58,649 bases of DNA from Conexivisphaerales archaeon (GCA_030756715.1 JAVBJD010000003.1:1-58649); one strand, 5' to 3'; numbered from the stretch's first letter, positions 10,140-47,651 are shown. Program-made: numbers and translations. The notes: generated from the sequence alone by a model not told the origin.

Positions 10140-10778
10140 ATGAGCAATTTTCAGAGAAATTGGGAGAACAAAAAAGATGAGAGCTTAGGAGATAAAATAA
10201 AAACCGCAGTTAAACCCGACGAACCTCTTAAAAAGAAACTCGAACAGGCGATAAGGCTTTTACAGATACAGATATCAAAGCTTGACGGAACAGCGGCAAA
10301 ACTGAAAGAAAAGGACCAGAAGTACTTTGAAAAGGTTGTCACATACTTGCAGAAACACGATAACGAAAGGGCAAACATATACGCTACAGAACTAGCTGAA
10401 ATAAGGAAGATGTACAAGATGCTTACGCAGGCCAAGCTAGCTTTAGAACAGATTTCAACGAGGCTGTCTACGGCAACGGAGCTCGGAGATGTGGTTGCCG
10501 TGCTTGATCCTGCAATGAAAGTCCTATCTAGTGTAAGGAGAGGAGTAAGCGGTGTAATGCCGGCTGCTGAAGATGAGCTGGGAGAAATTTCAACTCTATT
10601 AAACAACATAATGGTAGATGCAGGGCAAATATACAGCTCAGGAATAAACTTTGAACCAAACAATGATGAAGCTGAAAACATATTATCCCAGGCATCTGCG
10701 GTAGCTGAAGCAAGGATGAAACAGACACTTCCAGACATAAGCGGTTTAGGCCTAGGAACTGAAGGGTCTAAGCAGTAA
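10140..10778 (+). CDS. ESCRT-III/Snf7 (Vps24)-like coiled-coil protein
   Basis: 212 aa and predicted all-helical. It has a basic N-terminal half and an acidic C-terminal tail. The helix pattern 'LEQAIRLLQIQISKLDG...LAEIRKMYKMLTQAKLALEQI...ELGDVVAVLDPAMKVLSSV' matches the Snf7 family layout as I remember it. Confidence 0.55.
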   Translation: MSNFQRNWENKKDESLGDKIKTAVKPDEPLKKKLEQAIRLLQIQISKLDGTAAKLKEKDQKYFEKVVTYLQKHDNERANIYATELAEIRKMYKMLTQAKLALEQISTRLSTATELGDVVAVLDPAMKVLSSVRRGVSGVMPAAEDELGEISTLLNNIMVDAGQIYSSGINFEPNNDEAENILSQASAVAEARMKQTLPDISGLGLGTEGSKQ

Positions 10779-11664
10779 AGTTAACGCAAAAGTCTTTTAT
10801 CCAATCAAATTTTTTTTCAAGTATTATTTTGTTTTTAAAAGAACATATCTCATTTTTCAATTCATCCAGGTCTAAATAAACTCTGCAGCTTTGCATCTCC
10901 TCGGAAAAAACCTGAACGTTTTCCAAAAATTCATCATAACTTTTTATTTCTATCAAACCTGGATTGACTCTTGGACCTCCTAAAATTAGGAGATTTTTGA
11001 TAAAGTTAGGAGCTGATAAAGTGAACAAATTAGAAACAGTTGTTGAACCGTATTCACCAAAAAGCTCCTCCATAACTTTCATCATCTTGCTAAGCCTTTC
11101 AGAAGCTTCATGATAATTCAGAAGATGTTCATTAACTCTCTTAAAAGAATAGCCAAGGTCTGTCAGAACGAGCTTGTCCATGGCGGAGTGCATTCCTCTT
11201 ATACCCGGGATCCAGGTTTCAGCTATCCTAAGCAAATTCTCTGTATTTAAATCATAAATCCGCAGCTTTGCCGTTTCTGAAGCTATATCTATTATTCTGT
11301 TTTCAACATGAAGCGAAAGCTTTTCTGGAAATTCCCTGTCTTTTATAGGTTTTATTTTGACGGTTCTGGGGCTTAAGTGTTCAATGAGATCCTTGATCTT
11401 CTCGATGTAGTTTTGATTAAGTTGTGTGGGATCAAGTATAAAACAGTGATAACCAAGGTACTTAACGGCCCTCCTTTTGAGTATGTTTATCTTTGGAAGA
11501 GAAAAACAGAAGGCCGCACTACTAACAATATAGTCTACTTTAACATAAAAAGACGTTGTAATCCAGAAAGTTTTTTGTACCTGAACGTTATAATTATCTT
11601 TGAGCGTATTAATAAAATCTTCAAAATAGGTTATCTGCGGCAGATTCCTGTCCAATTTAGACAA
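10768..11664 (-). CDS. hypothetical protein (298 aa), no recognisable domain
   Basis: Long ORF with normal-looking codon and amino-acid composition. Its 3' end overlaps the Snf7-like gene convergently by 11 nt, and it diverges from scpB. Confidence 0.5.
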   Translation of the reverse strand: MSKLDRNLPQITYFEDFINTLKDNYNVQVQKTFWITTSFYVKVDYIVSSAAFCFSLPKINILKRRAVKYLGYHCFILDPTQLNQNYIEKIKDLIEHLSPRTVKIKPIKDREFPEKLSLHVENRIIDIASETAKLRIYDLNTENLLRIAETWIPGIRGMHSAMDKLVLTDLGYSFKRVNEHLLNYHEASERLSKMMKVMEELFGEYGSTTVSNLFTLSAPNFIKNLLILGGPRVNPGLIEIKSYDEFLENVQVFSEEMQSCRVYLDLDELKNEICSFKNKIILEKKFDWIKDFCVNFTA

Positions 11665-11727: not shown

Positions 11728-12267
11728 ATGCCTGAAGAGACTGGAAAAACAAAGCTGAGAGAGCAGCTTGAGGCCGCTCTTTTAGCTTCGGGAAGGCCTG
11801 TATATATGGAAGAACTCGTTAAAATTTTAAAAGCGAAACCAAAAGACATAAAAGAAGAGCTTGAGCACTTAAAAAAGATCTATTCTGAAGACTCTGCCTT
11901 GGAACTTGTGGAGTTTGAAGAGAGTTTCATGCTGAGAATAAAGCCTGAACTCGTAGCTATAGCCAAAAAGTTTTCAGAAAAACCTTTTCTGAGCAAATCT
12001 TTGGCAAAAACGCTTTCAATCATAGCTTATTATGGTCCTTTAAGCATCAAAGATCTGAAGGAAAAGAGGGGAAGCGTAGTTTACTCACACATAAAAACAT
12101 TAGAAAAATTCAGGTTAGTAAAAAAACAGGTATCAGGAACAAAAAAGGTTTATTCTGTAACAGAAGACTTTTTCAAGCTTTTTAACGTTCCTCAGGACAA
12201 AGATCAGCTTCGAAAAGCTTTATTCAGCAACCTCCAGCAGTTGGAGGGAAAGCAAAAGCTTCCTTAA
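11728..12267 (+). CDS. scpB: segregation and condensation protein B-like (winged-helix)
   Basis: 179 aa. The N-terminal 'LEAALLASGRPVYMEELVKIL' is the typical ScpB opening motif, and a second wHTH-like half follows ('LSIIAYYGPLSIKDLKEKRG'). Confidence 0.65.
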   Translation: MPEETGKTKLREQLEAALLASGRPVYMEELVKILKAKPKDIKEELEHLKKIYSEDSALELVEFEESFMLRIKPELVAIAKKFSEKPFLSKSLAKTLSIIAYYGPLSIKDLKEKRGSVVYSHIKTLEKFRLVKKQVSGTKKVYSVTEDFFKLFNVPQDKDQLRKALFSNLQQLEGKQKLP

Positions 12268-12454
12268 CGTCGGCAAGCACAAAGTCGTCGGGGAGTTTTT
12301 CACCGTTTATTAGCACGATGACTTGTGAAGGATCTACGTTTAAGAGCTTTGAAAGTTTTTCCCTGAGATCTTTTATGTTTGAAGCTTCTACGTCAACGTA
12401 ATCAGCTTTTGCAATTTCTCTGAACTTCGCAAAGATCCTAACTCTCACTTTCAA
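12224..12454 (-). CDS. MoaD/ThiS/SAMP-like beta-grasp protein ending in ...PPTAGGC
   Basis: 76 aa. 'MKVRVRIFAKFREI...' and the C-terminal 'FPPTAGG' are typical of MoaD/SAMP proteins. One extra Cys codon (TGC) precedes the TGA stop. Confidence 0.7.
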   Translation of the reverse strand: MKVRVRIFAKFREIAKADYVDVEASNIKDLREKLSKLLNVDPSQVIVLINGEKLPDDFVLADVKEAFAFPPTAGGC

Positions 12455-12680
12455 TCTTTGTCGCCGCTTCTAAAATTTCTAACACGTTTTTATCTATATC
12501 ATCCTGAAATGGAGATTGAGAAACGGCAAGATACCAATCTTTCAGCTCTCTTATTTTTAACCCTTTTTTCCTGCCCCAGGCTATGAGGTTCAGAGCTAAC
12601 TTTTCCGAGTAGTTAAGATTATCCATGGATACAGTTTTCCCTTCTTTTATGAAAACTCTTAGCGCGTTTTCATCCAACAC
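12438..12680 (-). CDS. hypothetical small protein (80 aa)
   Basis: ORF lying between the DUF2877-like and MoaD-like genes on the same strand. It overlaps the MoaD-like start by 17 nt. No motif recognised. Confidence 0.4.
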   Translation of the reverse strand: MLDENALRVFIKEGKTVSMDNLNYSEKLALNLIAWGRKKGLKIRELKDWYLAVSQSPFQDDIDKNVLEILEAATKIESES

Positions 12681-12712
12681 GTTGCTTAATACTTAGACAT
12701 CGAATAAAAGCA

Positions 12713-13507
12713 TTATGGACGAATAAACGATCTTTTCCTGATTTCCAGCCCTTTTAAAAACCCCAGCAAACTTTCTTTTCCTGATGTGTGACCCTTAAGC
12801 GAAATTTTAAGAAAGTATTTTTCTGCATCTATTTCATCATTTGCTGCCTGAATAAGTTCAGCAAATGAAGCAGAGAACTCCCCTAAGACAGCGCATCTGA
12901 GGAATTCCCGGCTTATCGAATTCGTCTTAATTAGCGCCTTGTTTATCGCTTCTTTTACGCGCTCAAAAAAATAAGAACCCTTTAACGATGCCATCAACCC
13001 CACTAGAAAATCATCACCGGAAGGCGTCATCCCTATTCCGAAACCTATTAGGCTTTCTAAATAATATGAATCATAGAGATTTTCAGGTTTAAATTCCAAG
13101 AGCGTCCTGCATACCTTCTTAACTGACGGAGCATAAAGTTCGCAAGAATAATTTTCACTGATAAACCTGCTTAGTTCATCATAAAAAATTTCATTATACT
13201 TTTTTAAGTACAAATCTGCGGTAGAAAATATTTTAGCATGAGAAAGGTCTAGATGATAACTGCCGATTTTGAGTTTACCTGCATAGTAAACTATGCGTCC
13301 GTGCTCTAGTTTTTTTAGTTCTGGAAAATTTTTAACAACTATTGAAGAAGGTTCGGGATCAACCTCGTCTGAAATTAAAAACAAAGCTCCTTCGTCAGAC
13401 ACGTAATCAATAACCTCTTCATTTTCATATACAAGTTCTGCGCTTAAAGGCCTTATGCAAGAAGATTTCAAGATTGCGAGCGGTTCAGATTTTAGCTTCT
13501 TGGTCAT
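12713..13507 (-). CDS. DUF2877 (YlbF/AllH-like) protein
   Basis: 264 aa. 'GFGIGMTPSGDDFLVGLMASL' and the C-terminal 'GHTSGKESLLG' resemble the DUF2877 signature as I remember it. The gene is paired with FdrA and DUF1116 across the divergent spacer. Confidence 0.6.
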   Translation of the reverse strand: MTKKLKSEPLAILKSSCIRPLSAELVYENEEVIDYVSDEGALFLISDEVDPEPSSIVVKNFPELKKLEHGRIVYYAGKLKIGSYHLDLSHAKIFSTADLYLKKYNEIFYDELSRFISENYSCELYAPSVKKVCRTLLEFKPENLYDSYYLESLIGFGIGMTPSGDDFLVGLMASLKGSYFFERVKEAINKALIKTNSISREFLRCAVLGEFSASFAELIQAANDEIDAEKYFLKISLKGHTSGKESLLGFLKGLEIRKRSFIRP

Positions 13508-13515
13508 TTCATCTT

Positions 13516-14193
13516 TTAAAGTTCTTTAATGACGTTCAAAACTGAGTTTATCCTTTCAGCATATTCTACAGATGAAGTTAAGTAACTTCCTACCACAAAC
13601 ACGTTTACGTTGGTGCCTTTGAACGCCTTTATCTTATCTGGGTTTAAACCGCCCGCTACAGAAATTACGCTTTCGCTTTTACCAAGCATTTTGAGCCTGT
13701 CGAGCAGAAGCTCAGCGCTCGTGGATCTTCTTTTTTGAACGTCTATCGGAACGTGGAAAGAGAAAGCCTTTATTCCTAACTTTTGCAGTTCGTGCATCCT
13801 CTGCAGAGGATCTTCCGTATTTATAAGATCAACTTCCAGTAGCATACCGGTTTTTTCAGCTTCTTCCTTTGCTGCCTGTATTGTATCGTTTGACGCGCAG
13901 CCTAAAACAGTGACTATATCTGCTCCAGCTTCTCCCGCTAGCCTCACTTCCAGATCTCCCACGTCGGCAGATTTCATGTCAGCTAAGATAAGTGATTCTT
14001 TAGCGCTATTTTTTAATTCTTTTATTATTTTTGTGCCGTACCTTTTAATCAGAGGAGTTCCAGCTTCTACAACGCTAACTTTGAGCTTACCAGCAACCAT
14101 AGCTATTTTGGTTGCGAGTTGTCTGTCAGGTACATCAAGGGCAACCTGAAGGTGCCTACCGTCCTTTAATCTGAGGAAAGCTTCTGTCTCCAC
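13516..14193 (-). CDS. OMP-decarboxylase-suprafamily TIM barrel (3-hexulose-6-phosphate synthase / 3-keto-L-gulonate-6-P decarboxylase-like)
   Basis: 225 aa with a GTG start. Motifs are 'LQVALDV', 'VEAGTPLIKRYG', 'ILADMKSADVGDLEV' and 'GADIVTVLG', as in HPS/KGPDC family members. Confidence 0.7.
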   Translation of the reverse strand: METEAFLRLKDGRHLQVALDVPDRQLATKIAMVAGKLKVSVVEAGTPLIKRYGTKIIKELKNSAKESLILADMKSADVGDLEVRLAGEAGADIVTVLGCASNDTIQAAKEEAEKTGMLLEVDLINTEDPLQRMHELQKLGIKAFSFHVPIDVQKRRSTSAELLLDRLKMLGKSESVISVAGGLNPDKIKAFKGTNVNVFVVGSYLTSSVEYAERINSVLNVIKEL

Positions 14194-14311
14194 ATTCAGG
14201 ATATGTTAAATCTTTATAAAAACATTGTCGAGGAGCGCATTTTTGAAAGTCGAACCCGAAACCATAATACCATGGTAAATATATAAATAAGCTGATAATA
14301 AAATAATTGAA
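14194..14311. promoter_or_regulatory. divergent promoter spacer with two TATA-like boxes
   Basis: 'TTTATAAA' (14213-14220) lies about 23 nt from the minus-strand GTG at 14193. 'TATATAAA' (14280-14287) lies about 28 nt from ATG 14312. Confidence 0.4.
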
Positions 14312-15835
14312 ATGGGAAAAAAGTTCACGATCGTGTTGAGAAACGAATACCGCGATTCTGTTTTCCTGATGAGAATAAACGATTTAGTTGAAAAGACAGA
14401 AGGCGTTACAAGGGCTGCGGTCATGATGGGAACAGAGGCTAATAAAGACCTGATGAAAGAAGCAGGACTTTATACTGAAGAAGCCAGGGAAGCCGGTCCA
14501 AACGACCTTATAATAGTCGTAGAAGCCGAAGATGAAAAATCAGCACAGAGAGCCTTAGAGTACGCCAAGAGCTTAGTTTATAAAACAGAAAAAGAAGAAA
14601 GGAAAGAGGAACAGAACTATATGAGCATACGCAGCGCCGTTTCATTTGAACCCGATATAGATCTTGTGTTGGTTTCCACTCCGGGGGAGTACGCTTATAG
14701 GGAAGCCATGAGAGCCTTGCTGCTGAACAAACACGTCATGGTCTTTAGCAGCAACGTCCCCATAGAAAAGGAAAAATCACTTAAAACCTACGCGAAGAGC
14801 AAAAATCTGCTAGTGATGGGGCCGGATGCTGGAACTGCGATCATAGGCTCAGTAGGTCTGGGATTTTTTAACGTAGTTAAAGAAGGGCCTGTGGGAGTTG
14901 TCGGTGCCGCGGGAACCGGCATACAGGTTGTTACTTCGCTTTTAGACCTTGCAGGTTCTGGAATAACCGCTGCTATTGGAACAGGTTCTAACGATGTCAA
15001 AGAAGCTATAGGAGGAATAACGCTAAAAACAGGAATAAACATGCTAGCCTCTCATTCAAGAACCAAGGTCATAACAGTAATCTCAAAGCCCCCTTCTGAA
15101 AAGATAGTTAAAGAAACAGTTGAAGTTCTGTCTAAAATCGGAAAGCCCGGGGTTATGAATTTTATAGGTTACAAGGGGAAAGACATAAGCGATAATCTTA
15201 AGTTCGCTGATACTTTAGAAGACGCCGCTCGCATTTCATACAGCTTTGCCAACAGTGACAGTTTTAAGTTACCTGATTGGACTTCTGAAAACGAAGTTAA
15301 TAAGGCAGAAGAAAAGCTAACAAGTGATCAGGTTTACATAAGGGGTTTATTCTCAGGAGGGACAATATGTTACGAAACCCAGTACTTGATGAGCAAAGAA
15401 GGGATAAAAACATACTCCAACGCGCCCCTCGATAAAGATTACGAAATAGGGGGTTTTGAACCTTCGAAGAAAGATACCGTTCTGGACATGGGAGCAGAGG
15501 AATTTGTGAGGGGTGTTCCCCATCCGATGATAGACTTTAGGTTTAGGAAGGAAAGGCTTTTAAAAGAAGTTGAAGACAAAGAAGTAGCTGTGATACTCTT
15601 TGATATAGTTCTTGGCTACGGAGCAAACATGAATCCAGCAGCAGAAATGGTTGATGCGATAAAAAAGGCAAGAAAAATCAATGAGAGGGTAGCATTTGTT
15701 GCATCTGTAATAGGTACTGAAAAAGACCCGCAGGGTTTGAATTCTCAGGTAGAGCAGCTGAAAAGTGCAGGCGTGCTGGTTTATCCTTCAAGCACAAGAG
15801 CTACTCAGGTGGCTTTGAGGATAGCAAAGAGGTGA
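14312..15835 (+). CDS. fdrA: FdrA/AllF-like acyl-CoA-synthetase (succinyl-CoA synthetase alpha-like) protein
   Basis: 507 aa. The N-terminal 'YRDSVFLMRIN' resembles the E. coli FdrA start as I remember it. SCS-alpha-like segments 'LVLVSTPGEYA', 'VMGPDAGTAIIG' and 'GVVGAAGTGIQ' are present. Confidence 0.8.
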   Translation: MGKKFTIVLRNEYRDSVFLMRINDLVEKTEGVTRAAVMMGTEANKDLMKEAGLYTEEAREAGPNDLIIVVEAEDEKSAQRALEYAKSLVYKTEKEERKEEQNYMSIRSAVSFEPDIDLVLVSTPGEYAYREAMRALLLNKHVMVFSSNVPIEKEKSLKTYAKSKNLLVMGPDAGTAIIGSVGLGFFNVVKEGPVGVVGAAGTGIQVVTSLLDLAGSGITAAIGTGSNDVKEAIGGITLKTGINMLASHSRTKVITVISKPPSEKIVKETVEVLSKIGKPGVMNFIGYKGKDISDNLKFADTLEDAARISYSFANSDSFKLPDWTSENEVNKAEEKLTSDQVYIRGLFSGGTICYETQYLMSKEGIKTYSNAPLDKDYEIGGFEPSKKDTVLDMGAEEFVRGVPHPMIDFRFRKERLLKEVEDKEVAVILFDIVLGYGANMNPAAEMVDAIKKARKINERVAFVASVIGTEKDPQGLNSQVEQLKSAGVLVYPSSTRATQVALRIAKR

Positions 15836-15840
15836 TCCTG

Positions 15841-17247
15841 ATGAGCAGCTTTTTCGATAAAAAGGTAAAAGTTCTCAACGTTGGTCTTGATAGCTTTTAT
15901 CAGGATCTCATCAAAGAAGGTGCGGAAGCTGTAAAGGTTGACTGGAAGCCTCCAGGTGGAGGGGTGCCAAGGCTTTTAAAAGTGCTTGAAGCTCTGGAGA
16001 CCGAAGAAACCGAGGAAGCTAACAGAAAAGCTGTTGAAGCGTTCACATCTTCAGACCCGGTGCTCGTGGACATTAAGCTAGCAAAGGAAGTAATACCAGA
16101 AATCACAGGCAAAAAATTTGGACATGCAGGACCTCCGATATCTTGGGAAAGGATGTCGGGGCCTCTTAAAGGGGCAGTGATAGGAGCGGCAATCTATGAA
16201 GGACTCGCTAAAGACGAAAAACAGGTCGAAGAACTTGTAACTTCAGGGGAACTGAGCTTCATTCCGAATCATGACGTTTCCGCTGTCGGGCCTATGGCTG
16301 GCGTCATCTCACCGGAGATGCCAGTCTTCATAGTAAAAAATTCTAAAGGATCTAATACAGCTTACACTAATTTTAACGAGGGCGTAGGAAAAGTCCTGAG
16401 GTACGGAGCTTATTCAGCTGAAGTTATTGAAAGATTGAAATGGATGAAGAACGTCCTCTTCCCTATACTCAAAGAAGCGCTAGAGGCACACGGTCCGTTG
16501 CCTCTTAGGCCAATAATGTCACAAGCACTGCAGATGGGCGATGAGCTGCATACGAGGAACAACGCAAGCACGCTCCTCTTTCTTGCAGAATTGGGACCTT
16601 ACATGCAAGGCAAAGGCTTCAGCAGAAGCGAAGTTTCTCAAAGCTATGAATTTATAGCCAAGAACCAGCTCTTCTTTTTAAACCTGGCAATGGCGGCTGG
16701 AAAGGTCATGATGGACTCGGCTTCAAACATAAAAAACAGCACTCTTGTGACAGTCATGTCAAGGAACGGGACAGACTTTGGAATAAAAGTCTCAGGGTTG
16801 GGAAAAGAATGGTTTGTAGGATCCGCTCCGGTGCCAAAGACTCTTTTCTTCCCAGGGTTTAAGGAAGGTGATGCAAACCCGGACATAGGAGACAGTGCCA
16901 TAATGGAAACCAACGGTTTCGGTGCCTTCGCATCGGCAGCCTCACCAGCTGTTGCTCAGGTAACCGGTGCATCAGTTAGTGAAGCCCTTAGAATAACGAG
17001 GTTGATGTACGAAATAACCATGATCAGGGACAAAAGTTTCCCGATACCGTACATGAATTTTGAAGGAGTACCTCGTGGAATTGACCTGCGCCTCGTGCTA
17101 GATACCAATACAGCACCTTACATAAACACTGGAGTAGCTCATAAACAAGCTGGAATGGGCACAGTTGGGTTTGGGATAGTCCAGGCGCCGATCATCTGTT
17201 TCACAAAAGCAATAGAGAGGTACGGAGAACTAGTTGGAGCGTTATAA
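15841..17247 (+). CDS. DUF1116 (YlbE/AllG-like) protein
   Basis: About 468 aa, immediately downstream of fdrA. An SD-like 'GGTGATC' sits 5 nt before ATG 15841. GTG 15832 is the alternative start and would overlap the fdrA stop. The family assignment rests on position, size and memory, and needs HMM confirmation. Confidence 0.6.
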   Translation: MSSFFDKKVKVLNVGLDSFYQDLIKEGAEAVKVDWKPPGGGVPRLLKVLEALETEETEEANRKAVEAFTSSDPVLVDIKLAKEVIPEITGKKFGHAGPPISWERMSGPLKGAVIGAAIYEGLAKDEKQVEELVTSGELSFIPNHDVSAVGPMAGVISPEMPVFIVKNSKGSNTAYTNFNEGVGKVLRYGAYSAEVIERLKWMKNVLFPILKEALEAHGPLPLRPIMSQALQMGDELHTRNNASTLLFLAELGPYMQGKGFSRSEVSQSYEFIAKNQLFFLNLAMAAGKVMMDSASNIKNSTLVTVMSRNGTDFGIKVSGLGKEWFVGSAPVPKTLFFPGFKEGDANPDIGDSAIMETNGFGAFASAASPAVAQVTGASVSEALRITRLMYEITMIRDKSFPIPYMNFEGVPRGIDLRLVLDTNTAPYINTGVAHKQAGMGTVGFGIVQAPIICFTKAIERYGELVGAL

Positions 17248-17248
17248 A

Positions 17249-17590
17249 ATGTCCATTTTGTTGAGAACCGATCTTAAGATGAGCAGAGGTAAGATGGTTG
17301 CGCAGGGCGCTCACGCCGCCGTTGCAGCGGCTCTGATTTGCAGGGATCAAAAGCCTGATGTTTTTTATTACTGGTATACGCAGGGGGCAGCAAAAATAGC
17401 TCTTAAAGTTAATTCTGAAGCAGAGATGATAGAACTTGTAAAAAAAGCTGATTCTTTAGGGCTTGTAACTTACATCGTGGAAGACATGGGCTTGACAGAA
17501 GTGTCCCCCGGCACCAAGACGGCAGCTGCCATAGGGCCGGGACCGGAAAGCAAAATAGACCAGGTTACCGGGAACCTTAAGCTGCTATGA
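17249..17590 (+). CDS. pth2: peptidyl-tRNA hydrolase, archaeal type
   Basis: 'LLRTDLKMSRGKMVAQGAHAAV' and the C-terminal 'TAAAIGPGP...ID.VTG.LKLL' are hallmark Pth2 motifs. ATG 17249 is preferred over the track start at 17234. Confidence 0.9.
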   Translation: MSILLRTDLKMSRGKMVAQGAHAAVAAALICRDQKPDVFYYWYTQGAAKIALKVNSEAEMIELVKKADSLGLVTYIVEDMGLTEVSPGTKTAAAIGPGPESKIDQVTGNLKLL

Positions 17591-18576
17591 TACCCGGGGT
17601 AACAGCAAAAGCGTTAAACGAAATAAGAATAAAGGGAAAGATCAAGGTCTTTCCTGAAGATTTTGTTGTGGCAGAAGTTATAAAAAAAGGTCTGTCATTC
17701 AAAGAAGGCAGACACCTTTTAGCGATAGCTGAAAAGAAAGGCGTTGAACACGCTGTTGTAAGTAAGACTTTGGGAAACATTGCGAACTACCTCGGAATAA
17801 AGGATAAAGATGCCCTTGCTTACTTTTTTGTGTCTTTTAAAAGGGTTAAAATAAACATAAAAAACGTGCCGGGGATCCGATTAAGGTTTGTAGGAAAAAC
17901 AAAGACAATTTTAACAAGGAGATACCTGCTGGGAAACGCGTTTAAGGTAAAAATAAGGGATTGTGAGTGTATAGAAAATGCTTTTCAGAACTGGAAAAAC
18001 ATACTTGAAAGATGGGAAGCGCCAAATTTCTATGGCATGCAGAGGTTTGAAAATAATAATTACGTTATAGGAGAAGCTCTGGTGAAAAGGGATTTTAAAA
18101 AGGCAGATGAGCTTGTGCAGGAAGATGGGTACAATGGGATTAAAGATGTACCACTTTGGTTAAGGAGGTTTTATGTTCAGGCTTATCAGTCTTATCTGTT
18201 TAACAGAGAGCTTTCAAAAGTGCTCAACGGAGAAGTTAGTGGCGAACCGATAAGGATGAATTTTTCAGAAGGCTTTTTCAACGGATCTGTTGAAATAGCA
18301 TACCTCCCGGGATACGGGTTCAGGGACAAAGGGGATGTATATTCTAAAGCTTTGATTGAAGTAGCAAAAGAAGAAGGGATAAAATTCAGACATTTTTACA
18401 TCGATGAATATCAAGAAATCAGCCAGGAAGGCGGAATCAGACCTGCAAGAATAATAGCCCACAAAGCCAACTACCGCATAAATGAAGGCCTGAACGAAGC
18501 TATAGTTAACTTTATTCTGTATAAAGGATCCTATGCAACTGTAGCTTTAAGGGAACTCCTATCAGATCTAGGTTAG
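17587..18576 (+). CDS. truD: tRNA pseudouridine synthase D
   Basis: 329 aa. Motifs include 'KVFPEDFVVAEV', 'KDKDALAY', 'APNFYGMQRF' and 'FYVQAYQSYLFN' (TruD family). It overlaps pth2 by 4 nt. Confidence 0.8.
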   Translation: MIPGVTAKALNEIRIKGKIKVFPEDFVVAEVIKKGLSFKEGRHLLAIAEKKGVEHAVVSKTLGNIANYLGIKDKDALAYFFVSFKRVKINIKNVPGIRLRFVGKTKTILTRRYLLGNAFKVKIRDCECIENAFQNWKNILERWEAPNFYGMQRFENNNYVIGEALVKRDFKKADELVQEDGYNGIKDVPLWLRRFYVQAYQSYLFNRELSKVLNGEVSGEPIRMNFSEGFFNGSVEIAYLPGYGFRDKGDVYSKALIEVAKEEGIKFRHFYIDEYQEISQEGGIRPARIIAHKANYRINEGLNEAIVNFILYKGSYATVALRELLSDLG

Positions 18577-19187
18577 TTATTTCCTGTGACCTCATCAGTA
18601 ACTAGGTCTTCAAAATTTACCTGCCACTCATCTATAAAATACTTTGCAGACCATCCATAGGAGGTAAGCCTCCCTTCATTTTCTTTCAAAATTTCAGCTT
18701 TTACTCGCATGTGCACGTATGGATCTGTGTATTTATAACCGAAAGGTTTTCCTCTTAATGATACTATTGGATTCGTTACCGTTATCATGTTACCTTTTAT
18801 AGCGTAAAAAGAAAACAGCCTTGCCAAAAACGAAAGTTCATACGAAACCTGAATTTCATAAAAAGGGAGGGACATTCCATCCCATAGTATAGTCTTATAT
18901 TTTTTATTTGTAATCAACCTCGATATCTTTTCAAATATAAACCCGGGTTCAGTAGCTTTAAGTACATCTATCCTGCCCATTGTTTCAATTTTTACTTTCT
19001 GCGTTTCAACAATCTTTTCGGGCCTGAAAGAACCCCTGCTGTCGATGTACAAAACTATTTCTCCTTTAGAAGCTTTTTCAATGGCTAGAGAAACCAGAAT
19101 CTTTTCTTTTCCAGATTTTTCGTCTCCAAATATTTCAATAAAACAGTTGTTGCATCTTCTGTTTAAGAACTGTTCAGCATTCATCAT
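18573..19187 (-). CDS. RadB-like RecA-superfamily paralog with degenerate Walker A
   Basis: 204 aa. 'FIEIFGDEKSGKEKIL' is a P-loop with GKE in place of GK[ST]. It is followed by 'LYIDSRGSFRPEKIVE', which resembles the RadA/Rad51/RadB 'YIDTEG.FRPER' segment, and by a Walker-B-like 'TILWDG'. Confidence 0.6.
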   Translation of the reverse strand: MMNAEQFLNRRCNNCFIEIFGDEKSGKEKILVSLAIEKASKGEIVLYIDSRGSFRPEKIVETQKVKIETMGRIDVLKATEPGFIFEKISRLITNKKYKTILWDGMSLPFYEIQVSYELSFLARLFSFYAIKGNMITVTNPIVSLRGKPFGYKYTDPYVHMRVKAEILKENEGRLTSYGWSAKYFIDEWQVNFEDLVTDEVTGNN

Positions 19188-19200
19188 AAGTATAATTTTA

Positions 19201-19515
19201 TTACCTTTCGGCTGTTGACCTCTTAAAAACTATGCTACCTTTTTCAAAAGTTATTTCATAAATGTCATTGACTTCAAACTGTAAGCCCAGCTGTAAATAT
19301 TCATTTTCTTTTAAGAAAAGGACTAACTTGGGCGTCCACAGCTCCTTTACTGATTGTATTGGGAATATAGCCTGCAATTGAGATATGAAATTCTTTGTCA
19401 TCTCGTCACCCGGGAAAGGTAATGTTGAATATTCTGTGAACTCTATTAGTCTTCCGGGTGTGCCGGTTATTGGATCATTCATGCCAGTTATTCTGCTTAC
19501 TTTCACAAGTACCAT
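19201..19515 (-). CDS. hypothetical protein (104 aa), upstream partner of the RadB-like gene
   Basis: ORF on the same strand, 13 nt upstream of the RadB-like gene. No motif recognised. Confidence 0.45.
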   Translation of the reverse strand: MVLVKVSRITGMNDPITGTPGRLIEFTEYSTLPFPGDEMTKNFISQLQAIFPIQSVKELWTPKLVLFLKENEYLQLGLQFEVNDIYEITFEKGSIVFKRSTAER

Positions 19516-19619
19516 ACATTATTATGATAAAAACTAGTATAAAAAAGCATTCTTTTATATTCAACAATAAAGGGTTTTGTTTAAATGCAGGCGTTAAAAA
19601 ACGCAGCTAGATGGTAAAA

Positions 19620-19901
19620 TTAGCTTGTTTCACGTATGGTCTCAAGTAAAGACATCATGTTCCATATCAAAACCCTGACATGAGAAGGTATGTTAGGATC
19701 TTGTGATATCTCTTCTAAGACGCTCACCGTGTTAGCAGCCCTTATAGCAGGGCTAACGCTGCTGTCCTGTAACTGATCTAGAGTTTCTTTAAGCATGTTC
19801 CTCAAGCTTCGAGGAATGCCCTTGTTAGCCAGTAATGGGGTAAGTTGCTGAATTACCTGTTCTATCTTTTTTTCATCTTCTAATTTACTTGAGGCCGACA
19901 T
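19620..19901 (-). CDS. UPF0147-family small helical protein
   Basis: 93 aa. 'IPRSLRNMLKETL...AIRAANTVSVLEEISQDPNIPSHVRVLIWNMMSLLE' matches the conserved archaeal UPF0147 pattern as I remember it. Confidence 0.6.
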   Translation of the reverse strand: MSASSKLEDEKKIEQVIQQLTPLLANKGIPRSLRNMLKETLDQLQDSSVSPAIRAANTVSVLEEISQDPNIPSHVRVLIWNMMSLLETIRETS

Positions 19902-22852: not shown

Positions 22853-24429
22853 GTGCTGCCTGCATCTCTGATAGCAGTGCTTGAGCTTTCATTACTTCTT
22901 TTATTGGGAAAACTGGGCGAAGAAAGTTTTTCAGCTCTTGATCTTACGCCTTTTGTAGGAGCTATACTGATAGGGCTCTTGATAGGACCGGGTATCTTTA
23001 AAGTTTTTTATCCATCTCCATACATATCTGATTTTATCAATCTTGGGATTGTTTTTATACTCTTTATGGCGGGTGTCGAAGAAACACGTGGAGGAAGCGA
23101 AATAAGAAAGCCAGCGCTTGCAGGAATAATAAATTTTATCATCGAGTACGTTATCATCTATGCGCTCCTTACCTACCTAGGCTTTGAACCCCTGGTGTAA
23201 TCAATTTTAGCTATAAGCCTTGGAATGGTAAGTGCAGGTCCGTTTCCCCGGACTATACAAGAGATATCTTTTAAAAGTGATGTAAGTCAGCACAGAAAAC
23301 TTTTTGTTGAGGTTCTTTTTAACGAGATTTCGGCAGTTGTGATTTTTTCTTTTTTTTTGCCATCGACGCTTTTAAAAACACCCTCGATATGTTAGAGGGC
23401 ATCGTGAAACTGTTAGTAGTCATAACGATCATTTTACTTTTTGGAAAATTTATAATCGGGAAAGTGTTATTTTTTGTTGAAGCTAGATTCAGGACGTGGG
23501 AGGCTCTTTTTGCTGTAGTGATATCGATTATTCTTTTGTTTGGTTTTATAGCGGACCTCGTAGGATTTAACTCAGCTATTGCTGCCTTTTTTCTGGGCGT
23601 GTTTGCTTCTGAATATATTCTTAACAATGCGTACCTTTTAGAAAAGCTCAGAGCTTTAACGTACGGGTTCTTTGAACCGATGTTTTTTGCAGGACTTGGT
23701 CTTTATTTTGTAAGCATAAACAGTTATGTAATATTTTTAGGTCTTACCGTTTTTGCAATTTCTATCACCGCAAAAATGTTCTCAAGCATTTTTACAAGCA
23801 AATTGGTAAACGTTAGCATAATCAAAAACTTTTTTGCTATAGCACATGAAGGAGGGGTTGACGGTGCAATACTCTTGACGGCACTGCAACTGAGTTTGAT
23901 AAGTTCCAAGTTTTACTCTATAGCTTTGATGGCCGTCATGATAATGAGCGTGATAGCGCCTCTAGGTTATAAAGGTAAAAGCCCCCTCTCTAGACCAAAG
24001 CCTGAACCATCGATTAAGTTCGTTACCTATGAGCTTTCAAAGAGCAGCGCTGAGGATCTTTCTCGCGTTCTTCCGACAGTTGCTGTGAGCGAGGACACGA
24101 CTGTTGAAGAAGCAGTAAAAAAAGCAGACCAACTTAACACTAGGGTCCTAGTAGTTGTTAATAAAGAGGGAAAACCAATAGGCTATTCTACTGTTCATGA
24201 CCTTTTCAAGATGGTTTCATTTGGACAGGGAGATGTTCGTATGCAAGATGTCTTTCTCCTGCCGGTTCCAAGAATTTACAAATCCGCTTCGGGTTCTGAA
24301 GTGCTAGACGTTTTTAAAATGAGCGATGCGCAAGTAGTTGCTGTAATAAATGAACGCGGGGAGCTTGTAGGAACAATACTGGAAAAAGAAGTTCTCAGAT
24401 ATATACTAAAAGGAGAAAAAAAGACTTAA
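22853..24429 (+). pseudogene. disrupted CPA2-type cation:proton antiporter with C-terminal CBS pair
   Basis: The 115-aa N-terminal fragment ends at an in-frame TAA (23198-23200). The same frame then continues as antiporter-like sequence ('SILAISLGMVSAG...VEVLFNEISAVVIFSFF'). A -1 frame change inside the T6-C-T9 tract (23343-23358) is needed to join the 346-aa C-terminal ORF, which carries TM helices and two CBS motifs. Confidence 0.7.
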
Positions 24430-37939: not shown

Positions 37940-39856
37940 TCATTTACACTTACCGTTATTTTTTGCTTCATACAGCTCATCCACGCTTATTATGTATTCT
38001 GCGTGACTCCATACAAGAGGTGATACTGATACTGGTCCTCCATCATACGGGTTTATCTGTTCAGAAAGAACGCCAGATCTCTGACTGTGATTAAGAACCC
38101 ATTTTATAAGAGAAAGCGCGCTGTTGCAATCGCCAATATGTGTGTAGTACCTTGAAGCCCAGAGCGTAGTTATTATCCATGGATTTCCAGGCACTTCTCT
38201 GTCATCTCTTATCCTCTGATACATATCCCCTTCGTACCTGGCCAGGCCTCCTGTGCTTTTGACCCATAGCTTGTTCATTATGACATCCACGTTGGCTTTA
38301 ACCCTGGGGTCTGAAGGGTCCTTCATGCCAAAAAGGAAAAGAGCCATGTTCTGTGAATCTACTGTAAAGTCCGGCTTTCCGTTTATGATGGCTCTTGCGT
38401 AATATCCTTTTTCTGGCAAATAGAAAAACGAATCATATGCTGAAGCCATCCTGCGGGCCGCATCTAAATATTTTTCTGACACATCGTCTTCTTTAAAGAT
38501 CCTTGCGAAGTTTGAAGCCGCTACGAGCGCAGCGTACACGGTTGCAACGGTATATGTATGGATTCCAAAGCGTTCTTCCCATAAATCATAAGATTCTTTT
38601 GGAAGGCCGTCATCGTTTACAAATGAAGACATAAAATCTGCAGCCCTTTTGATAAGCCTTTCATACAAGGGAAAAAAGTATTCGACGTCAAGAGATTTTA
38701 GATAATATTGCCAGAGCGACCATATAACCAATGCCGTCTCATCTTCTTGGATGGGCAAAATCGGTCTTCCTCCAATTATTCTGGGTATCCAGCTGCTGGC
38801 CATGTTTCCGTCAGGAAGGTATTTATGATAAAAGTAACCACCGTCTGATATCGTTGACAGAGCATATTCAAAGAACCTTCTCGCAGCGCTGAAGTGATAG
38901 GTTTTTGTTAAAGCGTAAGCGGCTATTGAAGCATCCCTAGGCCATACATAATAATAGCCATCCTTGCTCCTTTTTAAAATGTCACTGTCTGAAGAAGCCA
39001 TTATAGCCCCCTTGTTGTTCATGTGAATTTTTATTATGAACTGAGATTTTCTGAATAGAGAAAGCATATCTTGTTCTGCAGATATGTTCCTTTTTTCGTT
39101 CCAAACCGTCCAGTAGTTCTTTGTCCTTTTGAACATGTCTCTTAACAAGTTAAAGTTAATTTTTCTTCTTAAAGATAGAAGGGAATCAAGGTCCTCCTGT
39201 GCTATTATAAAATAATACATTTCCTTTGTTTCTCCCGGTAGCAGAAATATGGTGTGTCCTACAACAGAATCAACAGAACCTATTGCTACCGCATTGAACG
39301 ATAGTTTCCCGTCCTCGGCGTCTTTCCAGGTTCCTTCGTAGCCATCAAAGCCTTTTATTCCCACTGCGTACTGATCGATGCTGTTTCCGTACTGATCTAT
39401 TGTTGAAACCAGAAAGAGCCTCCTGTTTTTATAGTGTATTACGGAGTTAAGATGAGGCTCATAAAACGCCGTATCTCCTATGTCATTACCGTAGATATAA
39501 AAATCCTGATGAAAAAACAGTTTAACTTCCAAAGAAGCGTTACCGTTGTTGGTAAGAGCTATTTTCTTAGAATAAACGTCATCATAAATGTCCACAAAAT
39601 CGTTGTTAATAATGCCTATAGGACCGCTTGAAAACTTAACCTCTGTAACCATTGTATCGTCAAGATAATCCATATTGCTTATAATTTCATGACCAACCCA
39701 TTTAAAGCTACCATCTACGGAGAGCCCGTACCTGAAAGGGTGTCCGACAGCGTGATTTTCTGCTTGATCATGAGCGTAATAAAGGTCGACGATCCTGTAA
39801 TCCCTGTCAAAACTCAAGAGCAGCCTGTTGTTGCCTATAGGCAGATAACGAACCAT
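37940..39856 (-). CDS. GH15 glycoside hydrolase (archaeal glucoamylase/trehalase type)
   Basis: 638 aa. It has an N-terminal beta-sandwich region and a C-terminal (alpha/alpha)6 region, with 'YYYVWPRDAS', 'LWEERFG' and 'PLVWSHAEYI' typical of GH15. Confidence 0.85.
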   Translation of the reverse strand: MVRYLPIGNNRLLLSFDRDYRIVDLYYAHDQAENHAVGHPFRYGLSVDGSFKWVGHEIISNMDYLDDTMVTEVKFSSGPIGIINNDFVDIYDDVYSKKIALTNNGNASLEVKLFFHQDFYIYGNDIGDTAFYEPHLNSVIHYKNRRLFLVSTIDQYGNSIDQYAVGIKGFDGYEGTWKDAEDGKLSFNAVAIGSVDSVVGHTIFLLPGETKEMYYFIIAQEDLDSLLSLRRKINFNLLRDMFKRTKNYWTVWNEKRNISAEQDMLSLFRKSQFIIKIHMNNKGAIMASSDSDILKRSKDGYYYVWPRDASIAAYALTKTYHFSAARRFFEYALSTISDGGYFYHKYLPDGNMASSWIPRIIGGRPILPIQEDETALVIWSLWQYYLKSLDVEYFFPLYERLIKRAADFMSSFVNDDGLPKESYDLWEERFGIHTYTVATVYAALVAASNFARIFKEDDVSEKYLDAARRMASAYDSFFYLPEKGYYARAIINGKPDFTVDSQNMALFLFGMKDPSDPRVKANVDVIMNKLWVKSTGGLARYEGDMYQRIRDDREVPGNPWIITTLWASRYYTHIGDCNSALSLIKWVLNHSQRSGVLSEQINPYDGGPVSVSPLVWSHAEYIISVDELYEAKNNGKCK

Positions 39857-39975
39857 AAGGTTTTATATAGACAATCCTATAAAACTGTTATTGTTGCAGC
39901 GGTTGTGTTTTTGTAAAATTAATTTTACGCAAGCAAAAGCATAAATGCAAAGAAGAGAATTTATGGTAAGAGAGT

Positions 39976-41787
39976 ATGAACAACTTTCAAAAAGATCGCG
40001 AATGGATTATTTCAAACAGGAAAGGTAGCTATTCTTCATCGTCTGTATCGTTTGCAAACTTAAGGACATATCACGGAGTTTGCGTAAAAAGGTCTGAGAA
40101 AGATTATAGCGGTAAAGTGCTCCTTTCAAAGCTTTATGAAGATTTTAAAATTAAGAGTAATACTTACAGCATAGATACAAATTATTATGAAGGAGGAATT
40201 TACCCTCAGGGCTATAAACATTTAATAAGCTTCGAAGAGGAGCCGTATCCGCAGTTTGTTTACGATGTAGCTGAAACTCTGATCAAAAAATCTTTAGTAA
40301 TGGATCCGGAAGAAGATTGGCTTGTCATAAGGTATGAGTTTTATGGAACTTTACCAGATACATTTTACCTGCATCCTCTTTTCGCTTTCAGAAATTACCA
40401 TCAGGCGCTCAGGAAAAGGGATTTATCGCTTAAAACGGAAAAGCTTGAAAAAGGATACAGATTTATAGTTGATAAAGATCAGCTGAGCATTTTTGTCGAT
40501 GGCGAATTCGTCAGAGACAGCGTGTGGTACTATGGATTCGAATACCCTGTTGATAAGGATAGAGGTCTTAATTACGTGGAAGACCTCTATCATGAGGGTT
40601 ATTTCGTAATTGAACTCTCTAGCAGAAAGATAGATGTTAAACTTTCCTGTTCCGACATCGAGCCACCTGAGTTTGATACAGTTAAAAAAAGGACGCTAAA
40701 AAGTATTATTACAATAAAGAACGAGCTTGACAAGGTTTTAAGGCGCTCGTCTCTGTTTTTGATTAAAGACGATATAATAGCGGGATATTACTGGTTTGGT
40801 CCATGGACAAGAGATACAATGATATCTTTACCTGGATTGCTTCTTGTAACTAAAAGGTACAGATTGGCAAAAACTATACTTGAAAAATATGCAGGTTTTG
40901 CAGAATCAGGGGTGCTTCCAGTATCTTTGACTGACCCGAAAAACAGGGCATCCGCTGATTCATCTTTATGGTATGTGTACGCGCTTTACAAATATTATGA
41001 ATACACTAAAGACAAGAAAACCTTGGAAAAGCTGTTCCCTGTTTCTGTTTCGATCATTGAGGCTTATGTAAAGGGAAACGAACTCTTTGGATTAAAAGGA
41101 AGCCTCATAGAGACAAAAAAGCCACAGTTAACGTGGATGGACGCTAAAACAGGAGATATCGTATTCACCCCAAGAATCGGTCTTCCCGTAGAAGTAAACG
41201 CACTCTGGTACAACGCTCTAGCTTCCGTTAATTATTTTTCAAACGAATTAAATAGGGAGGTGCCAGAGTATATTTATGAACTGCTCCCTAAAGTAAAAGA
41301 GGAGTTTTTTGCGAAGTTTGTGAAAAACGATACGATCTTAGATGTAGCAGAACCTGACGATTACAGCCTTAGGCCCAACTTTATACTTGCATTTTCGCTT
41401 CCTTATCCACTGCTGAGCGACTTTGCAAAATACAAAAAAGTTGTAGACGATAAGCTGTTAACTCCTTTTGGTTTGAGATCACTTTCTCCTGACGATCCAA
41501 AGTACTCAGGCAGATACGAAGGCGATCAGTTCAGCAGAGACAAAGCGTATCACAACGGATCTGTGTGGCCGTGGCTTGCTGGTCCCTATATCAAAGCTTC
41601 AGTAAGGAGCGGAGCTGATAAGGATCAGCTATACGAGTATTTTAAACCGCTTATTAAAATGGATATGATACCTGAAATTTTCGACGGCGATGAGCCGCAT
41701 GAACCAAAAGGCTGTGTAATGCAGGCGTGGAGCTACGGAGAATTGTTAAGAGCGTACAGCGAGGACCTTACAAAAAACATTCAGTGA
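39976..41787 (+). CDS. glycogen debranching enzyme (archaeal amylo-alpha-1,6-glucosidase, GDE_C type)
   Basis: 603 aa with 'YYWFGPWTRDTMISLPGL', 'LTWMDA', 'VEVNALWYNAL', 'YHNGSVWPWLAGPY' and 'QAWS'. Confidence 0.85.
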   Translation: MNNFQKDREWIISNRKGSYSSSSVSFANLRTYHGVCVKRSEKDYSGKVLLSKLYEDFKIKSNTYSIDTNYYEGGIYPQGYKHLISFEEEPYPQFVYDVAETLIKKSLVMDPEEDWLVIRYEFYGTLPDTFYLHPLFAFRNYHQALRKRDLSLKTEKLEKGYRFIVDKDQLSIFVDGEFVRDSVWYYGFEYPVDKDRGLNYVEDLYHEGYFVIELSSRKIDVKLSCSDIEPPEFDTVKKRTLKSIITIKNELDKVLRRSSLFLIKDDIIAGYYWFGPWTRDTMISLPGLLLVTKRYRLAKTILEKYAGFAESGVLPVSLTDPKNRASADSSLWYVYALYKYYEYTKDKKTLEKLFPVSVSIIEAYVKGNELFGLKGSLIETKKPQLTWMDAKTGDIVFTPRIGLPVEVNALWYNALASVNYFSNELNREVPEYIYELLPKVKEEFFAKFVKNDTILDVAEPDDYSLRPNFILAFSLPYPLLSDFAKYKKVVDDKLLTPFGLRSLSPDDPKYSGRYEGDQFSRDKAYHNGSVWPWLAGPYIKASVRSGADKDQLYEYFKPLIKMDMIPEIFDGDEPHEPKGCVMQAWSYGELLRAYSEDLTKNIQ

Positions 41788-41793
41788 CGCTTA

Positions 41794-42636
41794 TCACAAA
41801 TTTTCCTTTTTAAATCTGAAAAAGGCTGTACCCTTATATTCGGTTTTTATCGCAAACAAGCTGCCGCCTAAGTAATCTTCGGAAGCTGCCGAAGTTATGA
41901 ACAGTGTATTCATATCTTTGCCCCCAAAGGTGCACGAGGATGTCTTTTTAGTTGGAACGTTTATTTCTAAGATTTTCTTATTTGAAAAAGGATCAAACCT
42001 TATTATTTTGCCCCCTCCCCAGACAGCCACCCATATCATTCCATCGGCATCAATAGTCATGCCATCAGGAACGCCATCTTCATTTTTTAAATCAGCCGCA
42101 ACACCCACGTATCTTATGTTCATAGATTTATCGTATTCATAAACGCTGACCTTTTTTGTTGGCGAGTCGATTATATAAAAAAGCTTCCTTTTCAAGTCCC
42201 AGGCAAGACCGTTCGAAATGGTCATCCCGCTTAAAAGTGTCCTGAAATTTTTCCCGTCAAAAGAATAAAGCGAGCCTATTGGATTCTTTTCTTCCAAGTC
42301 CATAGTTCCTATCACAAGAAGGCCATCTGGGCTCACTTTGCCATCATTAAACCTTGTGTTCATGCCTTTTTCTATTTCTGCTATCTTTTTTGTTGAACCA
42401 GATTCTGAAACAAGATACAGGTTATGTCCAGCTGCTGCAATCAATCCGTCCTTATCTGTAAGAACCACGGCTGAAACCATATCATCTAGCTGGAAGTAGC
42501 TTAAATCTCCCTGTAGTTTAGAACGGTAGATCTTCCTGCCAAGAATGTCCACCCAGTAAAGCATATCGTTAATTTCATCGTAAACGGGACCTTCTCCAAG
42601 GATGTTTATTTTCTTAAAAACAACGTTGATTTTCAA
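41794..42636 (-). CDS. SMP-30/gluconolactonase/LRE-family lactonase
   Basis: 280 aa. 'LGEGPVYDE...LYWVDI', 'RFNDGKVSPDG', 'SNGLAWD' and 'PDGMTIDADG' form a six-bladed propeller lactonase pattern. Confidence 0.75.
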   Translation of the reverse strand: MKINVVFKKINILGEGPVYDEINDMLYWVDILGRKIYRSKLQGDLSYFQLDDMVSAVVLTDKDGLIAAAGHNLYLVSESGSTKKIAEIEKGMNTRFNDGKVSPDGLLVIGTMDLEEKNPIGSLYSFDGKNFRTLLSGMTISNGLAWDLKRKLFYIIDSPTKKVSVYEYDKSMNIRYVGVAADLKNEDGVPDGMTIDADGMIWVAVWGGGKIIRFDPFSNKKILEINVPTKKTSSCTFGGKDMNTLFITSAASEDYLGGSLFAIKTEYKGTAFFRFKKENL

Positions 42637-42749
42637 CTGATTGCTTTTGGTTTAGGCGCCTTTAAGCGTTTATCAAGATTATTTTGCGATTAAATAAAAA
42701 GCTGCTAATAGCAATAGACGTTTATATATGTTCCCTGTCTTATATTGTT

Positions 42750-45863: not shown

Positions 45864-45922
45864 GCTTTTTATTTGATCGATATCGGATTTACACGTTTCT
45901 AAACAAATAGGCTTTTAATTTG

Positions 45923-47541: not shown

Positions 47542-47651
47542 GTCATATAATAGTACTACCACGGCTTTATTTATTGTTATAAAATAATCAGGCAATAAAT
47601 CGCGCGATTGAATAAAAAACCTTAAATATGCTTCTTTTATAGTCCTCAATT

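Follow-up and report, generated by a model that had tools for sequence, protein, structure and literature searches.

An AllFGH-family gene trio of a Nitrososphaeria lineage and the barrel and MoaD-like genes beside it

The AllFGH-type enzymes form a class of transcarbamylases that was defined recently and is mechanistically unexplained. AllF, AllG and AllH of Escherichia coli (the products of fdrA, ylbE and ylbF) co-purify, and catalyze the reversible conversion of oxamate and carbamoyl phosphate to oxalurate and Pi (oxamate transcarbamylase, OXTCase; Kim & Kim 2024, PMC11326118). The same species contains a related set, YahE-YahF-YahG (with YahI), and YahEFG is the best match for many of the loci surveyed below by blastp; we found no paper in the literature that tests the function of YahEFG, nor one that characterizes an N-heterocycle catabolic island of the YahEFG type. 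In archaea, allFGHK genes were described at the annotation level in ammonia oxidizers, as also in comammox (PMC12625717). We report herein an analysis of an archaeal AllFGH-type trio contained in a 58,649-nucleotide (nt) stretch of DNA from a Conexivisphaerales archaeon (JAVBJD010000003.1; the whole stretch is hereafter called the window), whose genes were called from a listing of open reading frames (ORFs) and from profile searches. An initial annotation of the window held the module to be uncharacterized in archaea, and the literature mentions that we could find were indeed confined to annotation.

The same annotation had joined the trio to three further genes, and had suggested that an OMPDC-like barrel and a ubiquitin-like carrier may be new accessory parts of it. 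On balance, we consider the region to be made up of three units, and do not favor a single module of six genes. The first would consist of allF and allG, co-transcribed with pth2 and truD, and of the divergent allH, which together would specify an AllFGH-family enzyme with a YahE/F/G-type architecture. The second would be a barrel enzyme of the hexulose-6-phosphate synthase (HPS) type, interconverting ribulose-5-phosphate plus formaldehyde and hexulose-6-phosphate, and probably just a neighbor of the trio. The third would pair p80, a small helical protein, with a sulfur-carrier or modifier protein of the MoaD/SAMP type. The features concerned are listed below (aa, amino acids).

14312..15835, plus strand: allF (FdrA/YahF-like), 507 aa; NF004760, PF00549, PF02629
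15841..17247, plus strand: allG (DUF1116/YahG-like), 468 aa; PF06545
12713..13507, minus strand: allH (DUF2877), 264 aa; PF11392
13516..14193, minus strand: HPS-type barrel of the OMPDC suprafamily; PF00215, best model TIGR03128
12438..12680, minus strand: p80, an 80-aa four-helix protein without a family match; conserved ORF in relatives
12224..12454, minus strand: MoaD/ThiS-like beta-grasp protein, 76 aa; PF02597
14194..14311, no strand: divergent promoter region of 118 bp with a TATA-like box for each direction; direct reading
17234..18576, plus strand: pth2 and truD, co-directional with allF-allG; PF01981, PF01142

Most of what had been read from this sequence was borne out. The identities proposed for the six genes were recovered by profile search for FdrA, DUF1116, the OMPDC-type barrel, DUF2877 and the MoaD/ThiS-like protein, and the 80-aa ORF is conserved. 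The divergent spacer with its two TATA-like boxes can be read directly: an A/T-rich box lies ~25-30 nt upstream of each start, and the allF-proximal one, ATATATAAATAAG, is conserved among members of the lineage. Another TATA-like sequence, CTTTTATT, lies ~25 nt upstream of p80. The plus-strand pair does run tightly into pth2-truD, as the stop of allG at 17247 is followed by a pth2 start at either ATG 17249 (a 1-nt gap) or TTG 17234 (a 14-nt overlap), and the end of pth2 in turn overlaps truD by 4 nt. On the minus strand, the barrel gene is the first of the string and lies 8 nt upstream of allH.

The AllFGH-type trio and its usual gene context

All three families of the trio are present, each above its curated cutoff. 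AllF scored 449 bits with NF004760 (cutoff 433) and contains Ligase_CoA and CoA_binding domains; in PDB it matched FdrA (3dmy, E = 1.5e-70) and also the alpha subunit of succinyl-CoA synthetase (SCS; E = 4e-8). It is an SCS-alpha-like subunit with a GVPHPMID loop and a length of the YahF type. The gene at 15841-17247 was placed in DUF1116 (PF06545, E = 1e-90, 303 bits against a cutoff of 27), with 3clq as its match in PDB (E = 8e-108). The database copy of AllG starts at ATG 15841 and has 468 aa; for a 471-aa version starting from a GTG, an exact-sequence lookup came back empty, the recorded protein beginning at 15841.

The gene at 12713-13507 was likewise placed in DUF2877 (PF11392, E = 1e-20, 74.5 bits against a cutoff of 25). 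AllH contains the motif GFGIGMTPSGDDFLVG, which is invariant across the family; its N-terminal domain is beta, and its C-terminal, all-alpha domain carries the GxGxGxTPSGDDFLVG motif intact. AllH is fast-evolving, with just nine full-length close relatives. An AlphaFold2 (AF2) model of it was obtained with a pLDDT of 91, but matched no fold in PDB by Foldseek (best E = 0.1, threshold E <= 0.001).

With FdrA, YlbE and YlbF of E. coli, the window trio shares 37%, 44% and 23% identity, respectively, and it keeps the PHPMID loop and the GxGLTPSxDD motif of AllH. It is similarly identical to the YahEFG set (36%/44%/24%). Since the identities to the two E. coli sets are about the same (36-37% and 44%), no substrate can be transferred from a closest paralogue. 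Unlike the E. coli allFGH genes, which have an allK and allECD/allB context, those of the window have none of these; allH follows the HPS gene on the other strand, allFG lies in an operon with pth2-truD, and AllF has undergone a C173A change and other substitutions. The archaeal (Nitrososphaerota) trio is shared with the ammonia oxidizers and comammox, but those clusters keep allK and biuret/triuret hydrolase genes, neither of which the window has.

The two plus-strand proteins also differ in size from FdrA and YlbE (507 + 468 aa against 555 + 419 aa), while they resemble YahF and YahG (515 and 472 aa), with which they share the domain boundary. The N-terminal ~50 residues of AllG (window 15841-15990) are, as in YahG, the counterpart of the C-terminal tail that FdrA has in E. 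coli. This shifted segment of ~47 residues is delimited by NF004760, positions 508-554 of which align to AllG residues 9-55, and by 3dmy, residues 429-474 of which align to AllG 8-53. The boundary between allF and allG is thus of the YahF/YahG type. A segment that migrates between two genes amounts to Rosetta-stone-type evidence that AllF and AllG function as one unit.

Bacterial homologues share 50% identity with AllG, and ~90 columns are invariant in a 15-sequence, cross-domain alignment. Among columns that are at least 95% conserved elsewhere in the family, AllG retains 94 of 99 and AllF 72 of 78. The identity to bacterial proteins and the conserved columns kept argue that AllG is under purifying selection. 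The substitutions of the lineage are C173A (GPDCGT to GPDAGT), A186F, D248H, A309S, T399V and N494S in AllF, and L94G, A129V, L182V, V372A and G377A/S in AllG. Residue 173 of AllF (window 14828-14830) is conserved as Cys in 95% or more of the AllF proteins elsewhere, and T399V adjoins the PHPMID loop. Most of these changes are common to Conexivisphaerales-type loci, C173A being among those also found in this sister lineage. To judge from sequence, the substitutions hint only weakly at an altered specificity in a clade that lost its catabolic partners.

To define the usual context of AllG, we took a census of 80 AllG loci with 10-kb flanks from GTDB species representatives, one of which belongs to this lineage, leaving 79 others. 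Neighbors were clustered, the clusters were named by Pfam, and members were counted by hidden Markov models (HMMs). Among the long loci (at least 15 kb; n = 44 outside the lineage), the counts were as follows.

PF04199 cyclase-family protein: 43/44
AllH: 36/44
FAD subunit of a Mo-hydroxylase: 28/44
Mo-hydroxylase large subunit (MoCoBD): 27/44
Xanthine/uracil permease: 24/44
Carbamate kinase: 17/44
HPS-like, MoaD-like or p80: 0/44 (and 0/79 of all)

Genes for PucR, amidase, thiolase and zf-ChsH2 also recur near AllG, and the archaeal loci of Bathyarchaeia and Hadarchaeota (L092, L094 and L095) have the same context of Mo-hydroxylase, cyclase, thiolase and CoA-transferase. The recurrence of cyclase, Mo-hydroxylase and permease indicates that the AllFG family normally resides in catabolic islands for N-heterocycles (purine-like compounds). 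A family of ~231-aa proteins without a Pfam match was also seen beside AllFG in 18 loci, including L042 and L092 (representative, L015 4241-4936).

The window departs from this pattern. In bacteria and archaea alike, islands of the yahEFG type almost always contain the PF04199 "putative cyclase" (amidohydrolase-type), and often a three-subunit Mo-hydroxylase, permease, PucR and carbamate kinase. In contrast, the cyclase is within 10 kb of allFG at none of the 15 lineage loci, the whole window included, and neither the window nor those 15 loci contain a Mo-hydroxylase, permease, PucR, carbamate kinase or allantoin/ureidoglycolate genes. Of the usual partners of AllFG, the window and its lineage retain only AllH. 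Blastp with E. coli AllK, YahI, AllB, AllC, AllD and AllE as queries, HMM searches and a Pfam survey found no homologue of carbamate kinase, allantoinase, AllC, AllD or AllE in the 58.6-kb window, in agreement with the first description of the trio. That description took the missing carbamate kinase to be what is unusual, a point that the census does not sustain: a carbamate kinase lies within 10 kb at just 22 of the 79 other loci, and because 57/79 are without one, its absence alone is not unusual. The real anomaly is the missing cyclase, with the Mo-hydroxylase/permease set.

If the first unit is as we propose, the AllFGH complex would, to judge from its E. coli homologue, most likely use phosphate to split an N-carbamoyl (ureido) compound and so yield carbamoyl phosphate, or catalyze the reverse. 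The SCS-alpha-like core of AllF would then act by a mechanism analogous to the acyl-phosphate half-reaction of SCS. In the lineage and its sister, the enzyme would have become detached from cyclase, Mo-hydroxylase, permease and carbamate kinase; it may handle an imported or endogenous ureide, which need not be oxalurate, and enzymes encoded elsewhere, unlinked to it, would take up its carbamoyl phosphate product. Being transcribed together with pth2-truD suggests an expression of the constitutive, salvage type. The trio may act on a different substrate in this archaeon, as first put forward.

The HPS-type barrel and the p80-MoaD-like pair

The barrel protein matched PF00215 with E = 9e-31. TIGR03128 was its best model, at 167.2 bits and hence under the trusted cutoff of 200, and HPS structures (9lj9 and 3ajx) were its best matches in PDB. 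D122, I150 and A180 align to positions 112, 139 and 169 of KGPDC (UlaD; 1kv8), so that the barrel has D/I/A at the three positions by which HPS and KGPDC can be told apart; in work by Yew and colleagues from 2005, a D/V/A state at these positions is said to distinguish or enhance HPS activity. The HPS-enhanced triple mutant of KGPDC (1xbx) aligned with 69.5 bits, compared with 63.2 for the wild type. Motifs for metal and phosphate binding are present (LQVALD, EAGTP, ADMK..D, H147 and AGGL). The HPS structures that align best, the D122/I150/A180 residues and the higher score of 1xbx mark the barrel, at the level of sequence, as an HPS-type enzyme whose catalytic residues are of the usual kind. 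Unlike known HPS proteins, it scores below the TIGR03128 cutoff, and no SIS/PHI gene, fused or nearby, was found in the window.

A metagenome scan with the HPS-like profile recovered the same lineage and three stand-alone HPS homologues of about 39% identity in unrelated contexts. A barrel beside AllFG was seen in this lineage alone, and at 0/79 other AllG loci. Since its operon-like link to allH is confined to one lineage, the barrel is probably a neighbor, not a subunit, and its role as an accessory part of AllFGH is unlikely.

The third unit lies toward a locus of cell-division and chromosome-segregation genes.

10140..10778, plus strand: cdvB/Snf7; Pfam
10768..11664, minus strand: X298, a 298-aa protein; no Pfam or NCBIfam match
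11728..12267, plus strand: scpB; Pfam

The MoaD-like gene shares 17 nt with p80 and, at its other end (12224-12267), 44 nt with the convergent scpB. The 3' overlap with scpB is kept in the lineage (35-50 nt in L001 and L005, longer in L004), and is 12 nt in L105. X298 in turn overlaps the 3' end of cdvB convergently, and a 31% identical copy lies beside cdvB in L105.

The MoaD-like protein scored 29.9 bits with PF02597 (gathering cutoff 22.5), and 30 bits with TIGR01687, below the cutoff of that model; it was also below the cutoffs of TIGR01682 and the SAMP1 models. It shares the ThiS-family fold signature and the C-terminal ...AFPPxAGG with MoaD/SAMP1-type carriers. Unlike these, it ends in ...AFPPTAGG-C, with an extra Cys after the conserved GG, and the tails after GG in the lineage are a Cys or longer and variable; the homologues in L105 and L106 end exactly at ...PP(V/Q)xGG. 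It further differs from such carriers in that it is always preceded by an overlapping p80 gene, and in that the window has no genes for MoaE, an E1-like partner (MoeB/UbaA/ThiF) or JAMM; the HMM census and Pfam survey of the 58.6-kb window found no E1-like, JAMM, MoaE or PHI gene.

As for p80, it has no sequence match in Pfam, NCBIfam or PDB, but is kept as an ORF of 80-83 aa in relatives. Its AF2 model (pLDDT 87) has four helices and matched no fold in PDB by Foldseek (best E = 2.8). Searching 1.84 billion representatives with a p80 profile yielded just six true relatives. Two other matches were set aside as spurious, one of the sequence to a designed propeller in PDB and one of the profile to a 394-aa protein with LysM repeats. 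Likewise, p80 is not a split-off piece of a longer AllH, as its HMM matches no AllH ORF.

The p80 and MoaD-like genes recur together elsewhere. The order in L105 is cdvB, the X298 homologue, p80-like, MoaD-like and then the convergent scpB, and in L106-L108 it is cdvB, p80-like and MoaD-like. The two genes overlap in all four loci, as they do in the window (pair coordinates, 1484-1946 in L105 and 1015-1499 in L106), and cdvB of L105 and L106 is ~70% identical to that of the window. No AllH or HPS gene lies directly upstream of p80 on these contigs. Because the pair recurs beside cdvB/scpB without AllH or HPS upstream, we take it to be an independent cassette, not an accessory of AllFGH: a separate two-gene cassette of the cdvB/scpB neighborhood. 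Counting the window, three divergent lineages have the pair beside cdvB/Snf7 (ESCRT-III) and scpB. It may represent a small ubiquitin-like system tied to a locus of cell division and chromosome segregation.

Synteny and the alternative explanations

The string of HPS-like, allH, p80 and moaD-like genes is present and tightly packed in every member of the lineage. However, ~15 kb is syntenic there, and takes in UPF0147, Arcadin-1, truD, pth2, scpB, cdvB, an MBL-fold gene and UDG as well. As these flanking housekeeping genes are equally syntenic, co-location within the lineage is uninformative, and we rejected it as proof of functional linkage. The sister lineage (Conexivisphaerales-type, L089-L091; AllG 68-70% identical) keeps allF-allG-pth2-truD, and none of the four minus-strand genes, AllH included, lies within 10 kb; in L090 and L091, scpB is directly divergent from allF. 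Of the minus-strand string kept within the lineage, the HPS-like, p80 and MoaD-like genes are at 0/79 other AllG loci.

It is these observations that make a single module of six genes, in which the HPS-like, p80 and MoaD-type proteins would be new accessory or pathway parts acting on a novel, possibly sugar-phosphate-derived substrate, quite unlikely in our view. The operon-like packing from HPS to moaD and the promoter region shared with allF in every lineage member do speak for it, as do the substitutions specific to this subfamily of AllF and AllG; moreover, with the usual partners absent, another supplier of substrate would be needed. Nonetheless, the additional genes are missing from all 79 other AllG loci and the whole minus-strand block from the sister lineage, the ~15-kb synteny of housekeeping genes lets co-location say little, the p80-MoaD-like pair is independent beside cdvB/scpB, and the active-site residues of the barrel are ordinary for an HPS. 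The census, the sister lineage and the cdvB/scpB loci thus give no support to an accessory role for the barrel or for the ubiquitin-like carrier. We regard as similarly improbable a scenario in which AllFG(H) of the lineage and its sister was recruited from an inducible catabolic island for N-heterocycles into a constitutive housekeeping operon (allF-allG-pth2-truD), with an altered active-site neighborhood (C173A and T399V in AllF) and a different ureide or acyl substrate, for example as a salvage or carbamoyl-phosphate-supplying enzyme, and with the co-transcribed HPS as a true pathway partner.

An older annotation, "acyl-CoA synthetase FdrA", implies that AllF-AllG, with or without AllH, form an SCS-like, NDP-forming acyl-CoA or acyl-phosphate enzyme for a small acid. 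The CoA_binding and Ligase_CoA domains of AllF and its alignment with SCS-alpha are consistent with this, and so are the CoA-transferase, thiolase and DUF35/zf-ChsH2 genes that adjoin allFG in Hadarchaeota and Bathyarchaeia, and the sister lineage, whose allFG have no AllH within 10 kb. The GPDCGT motif of AllF presumably aligns with the GPNCPG motif of SCS-alpha, and on that assumption the change of its Cys to Ala does not favor CoA chemistry. Carbamate kinase is, in addition, a recurrent neighbor (22/79 loci), and the sole biochemistry of the family is carbamoyl transfer without CoA (PMC11326118). On this evidence an SCS-like enzyme appears unlikely. It is scarcely credible that the trio now lacks a function and survives, in decay, from a catabolic island that was lost: although the context of cyclase, Mo-hydroxylase, permease and carbamate kinase was lost and AllH evolves fast, AllG is 82-99% identical in the lineage and 68-70% identical to the sister, reading frames are intact in every member, 94/99 AllG and 72/78 AllF conserved columns are kept, and the invariant motif of AllH is intact.

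Several points weigh against the composite of three units that we prefer. The gaps between the minus-strand genes are at most 32 nt, or the genes overlap, in all members (with AllH down to 39% identity), and the string shares one divergent promoter region with allF; co-expression, and hence some functional coupling of HPS with AllH, may follow. Several AllF residues that are conserved elsewhere, and that lie close to the presumed active site, differ here (C173A and T399V). The contigs of L105-L108 are short (1.4-2.4 kb), and AllFGH could lie just past their ends. Finally, the sole family member that was assayed is the AllFGH of E. coli. Most relatives lie in an island of cyclase, Mo-hydroxylase, permease and carbamate kinase genes, whereas those of one archaeal clade lie in a housekeeping operon and show a few changes close to the active site, and these two observations offer targets for studies of substrate range. 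The present evidence does not warrant annotating either the OMPDC-like barrel or the ubiquitin-like protein as an accessory subunit of AllFGH.

Host and other observations in the window

The closest relatives of the window genes (AllG 82-99% and AllH 39-85% identical) are labelled as metagenome-assembled genomes (MAGs) of Nitrososphaeria archaea, and the window also contains CdvB/Snf7 and Arcadin-1 genes. The Thermoplasmata host assumed at first is therefore to be replaced: the host is of a Nitrososphaeria MAG lineage. Assemblies of this lineage are GCA_049966455.1, GCA_049976285.1, GCA_964343315.1, GCA_049966115.1 and JAWDMM01, and GCA_013285345.1 is an example of a Conexivisphaerales-type MAG. 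Rfam and tRNA scans of the window gave no matches.

Downstream of truD (18573-19901) lie a member of a Rad51/KaiC-like ATPase fragment family, Arcadin-1 and UPF0147, a set that is syntenic across the lineage and partly so in Conexivisphaerales-type loci. A block for carbohydrate catabolism (37940-47649) contains a GH15 glucoamylase, a glycogen-debranching enzyme, a gluconolactonase, an MR/MLE-type dehydratase, a glucose dehydrogenase, a DHDPS-family (KDG-aldolase-like) gene and Dak1/Dak2, which suggests a heterotroph of the branched Entner-Doudoroff type. At 22853-24429, a Na+/H+ exchanger-CBS gene, which relatives (L005) carry as one gene of 524 aa, is distributed over three frames (22853-23200, 23225-23395 and 23389-24429), and is either a pseudogene or broken by frameshifts of sequencing or assembly.

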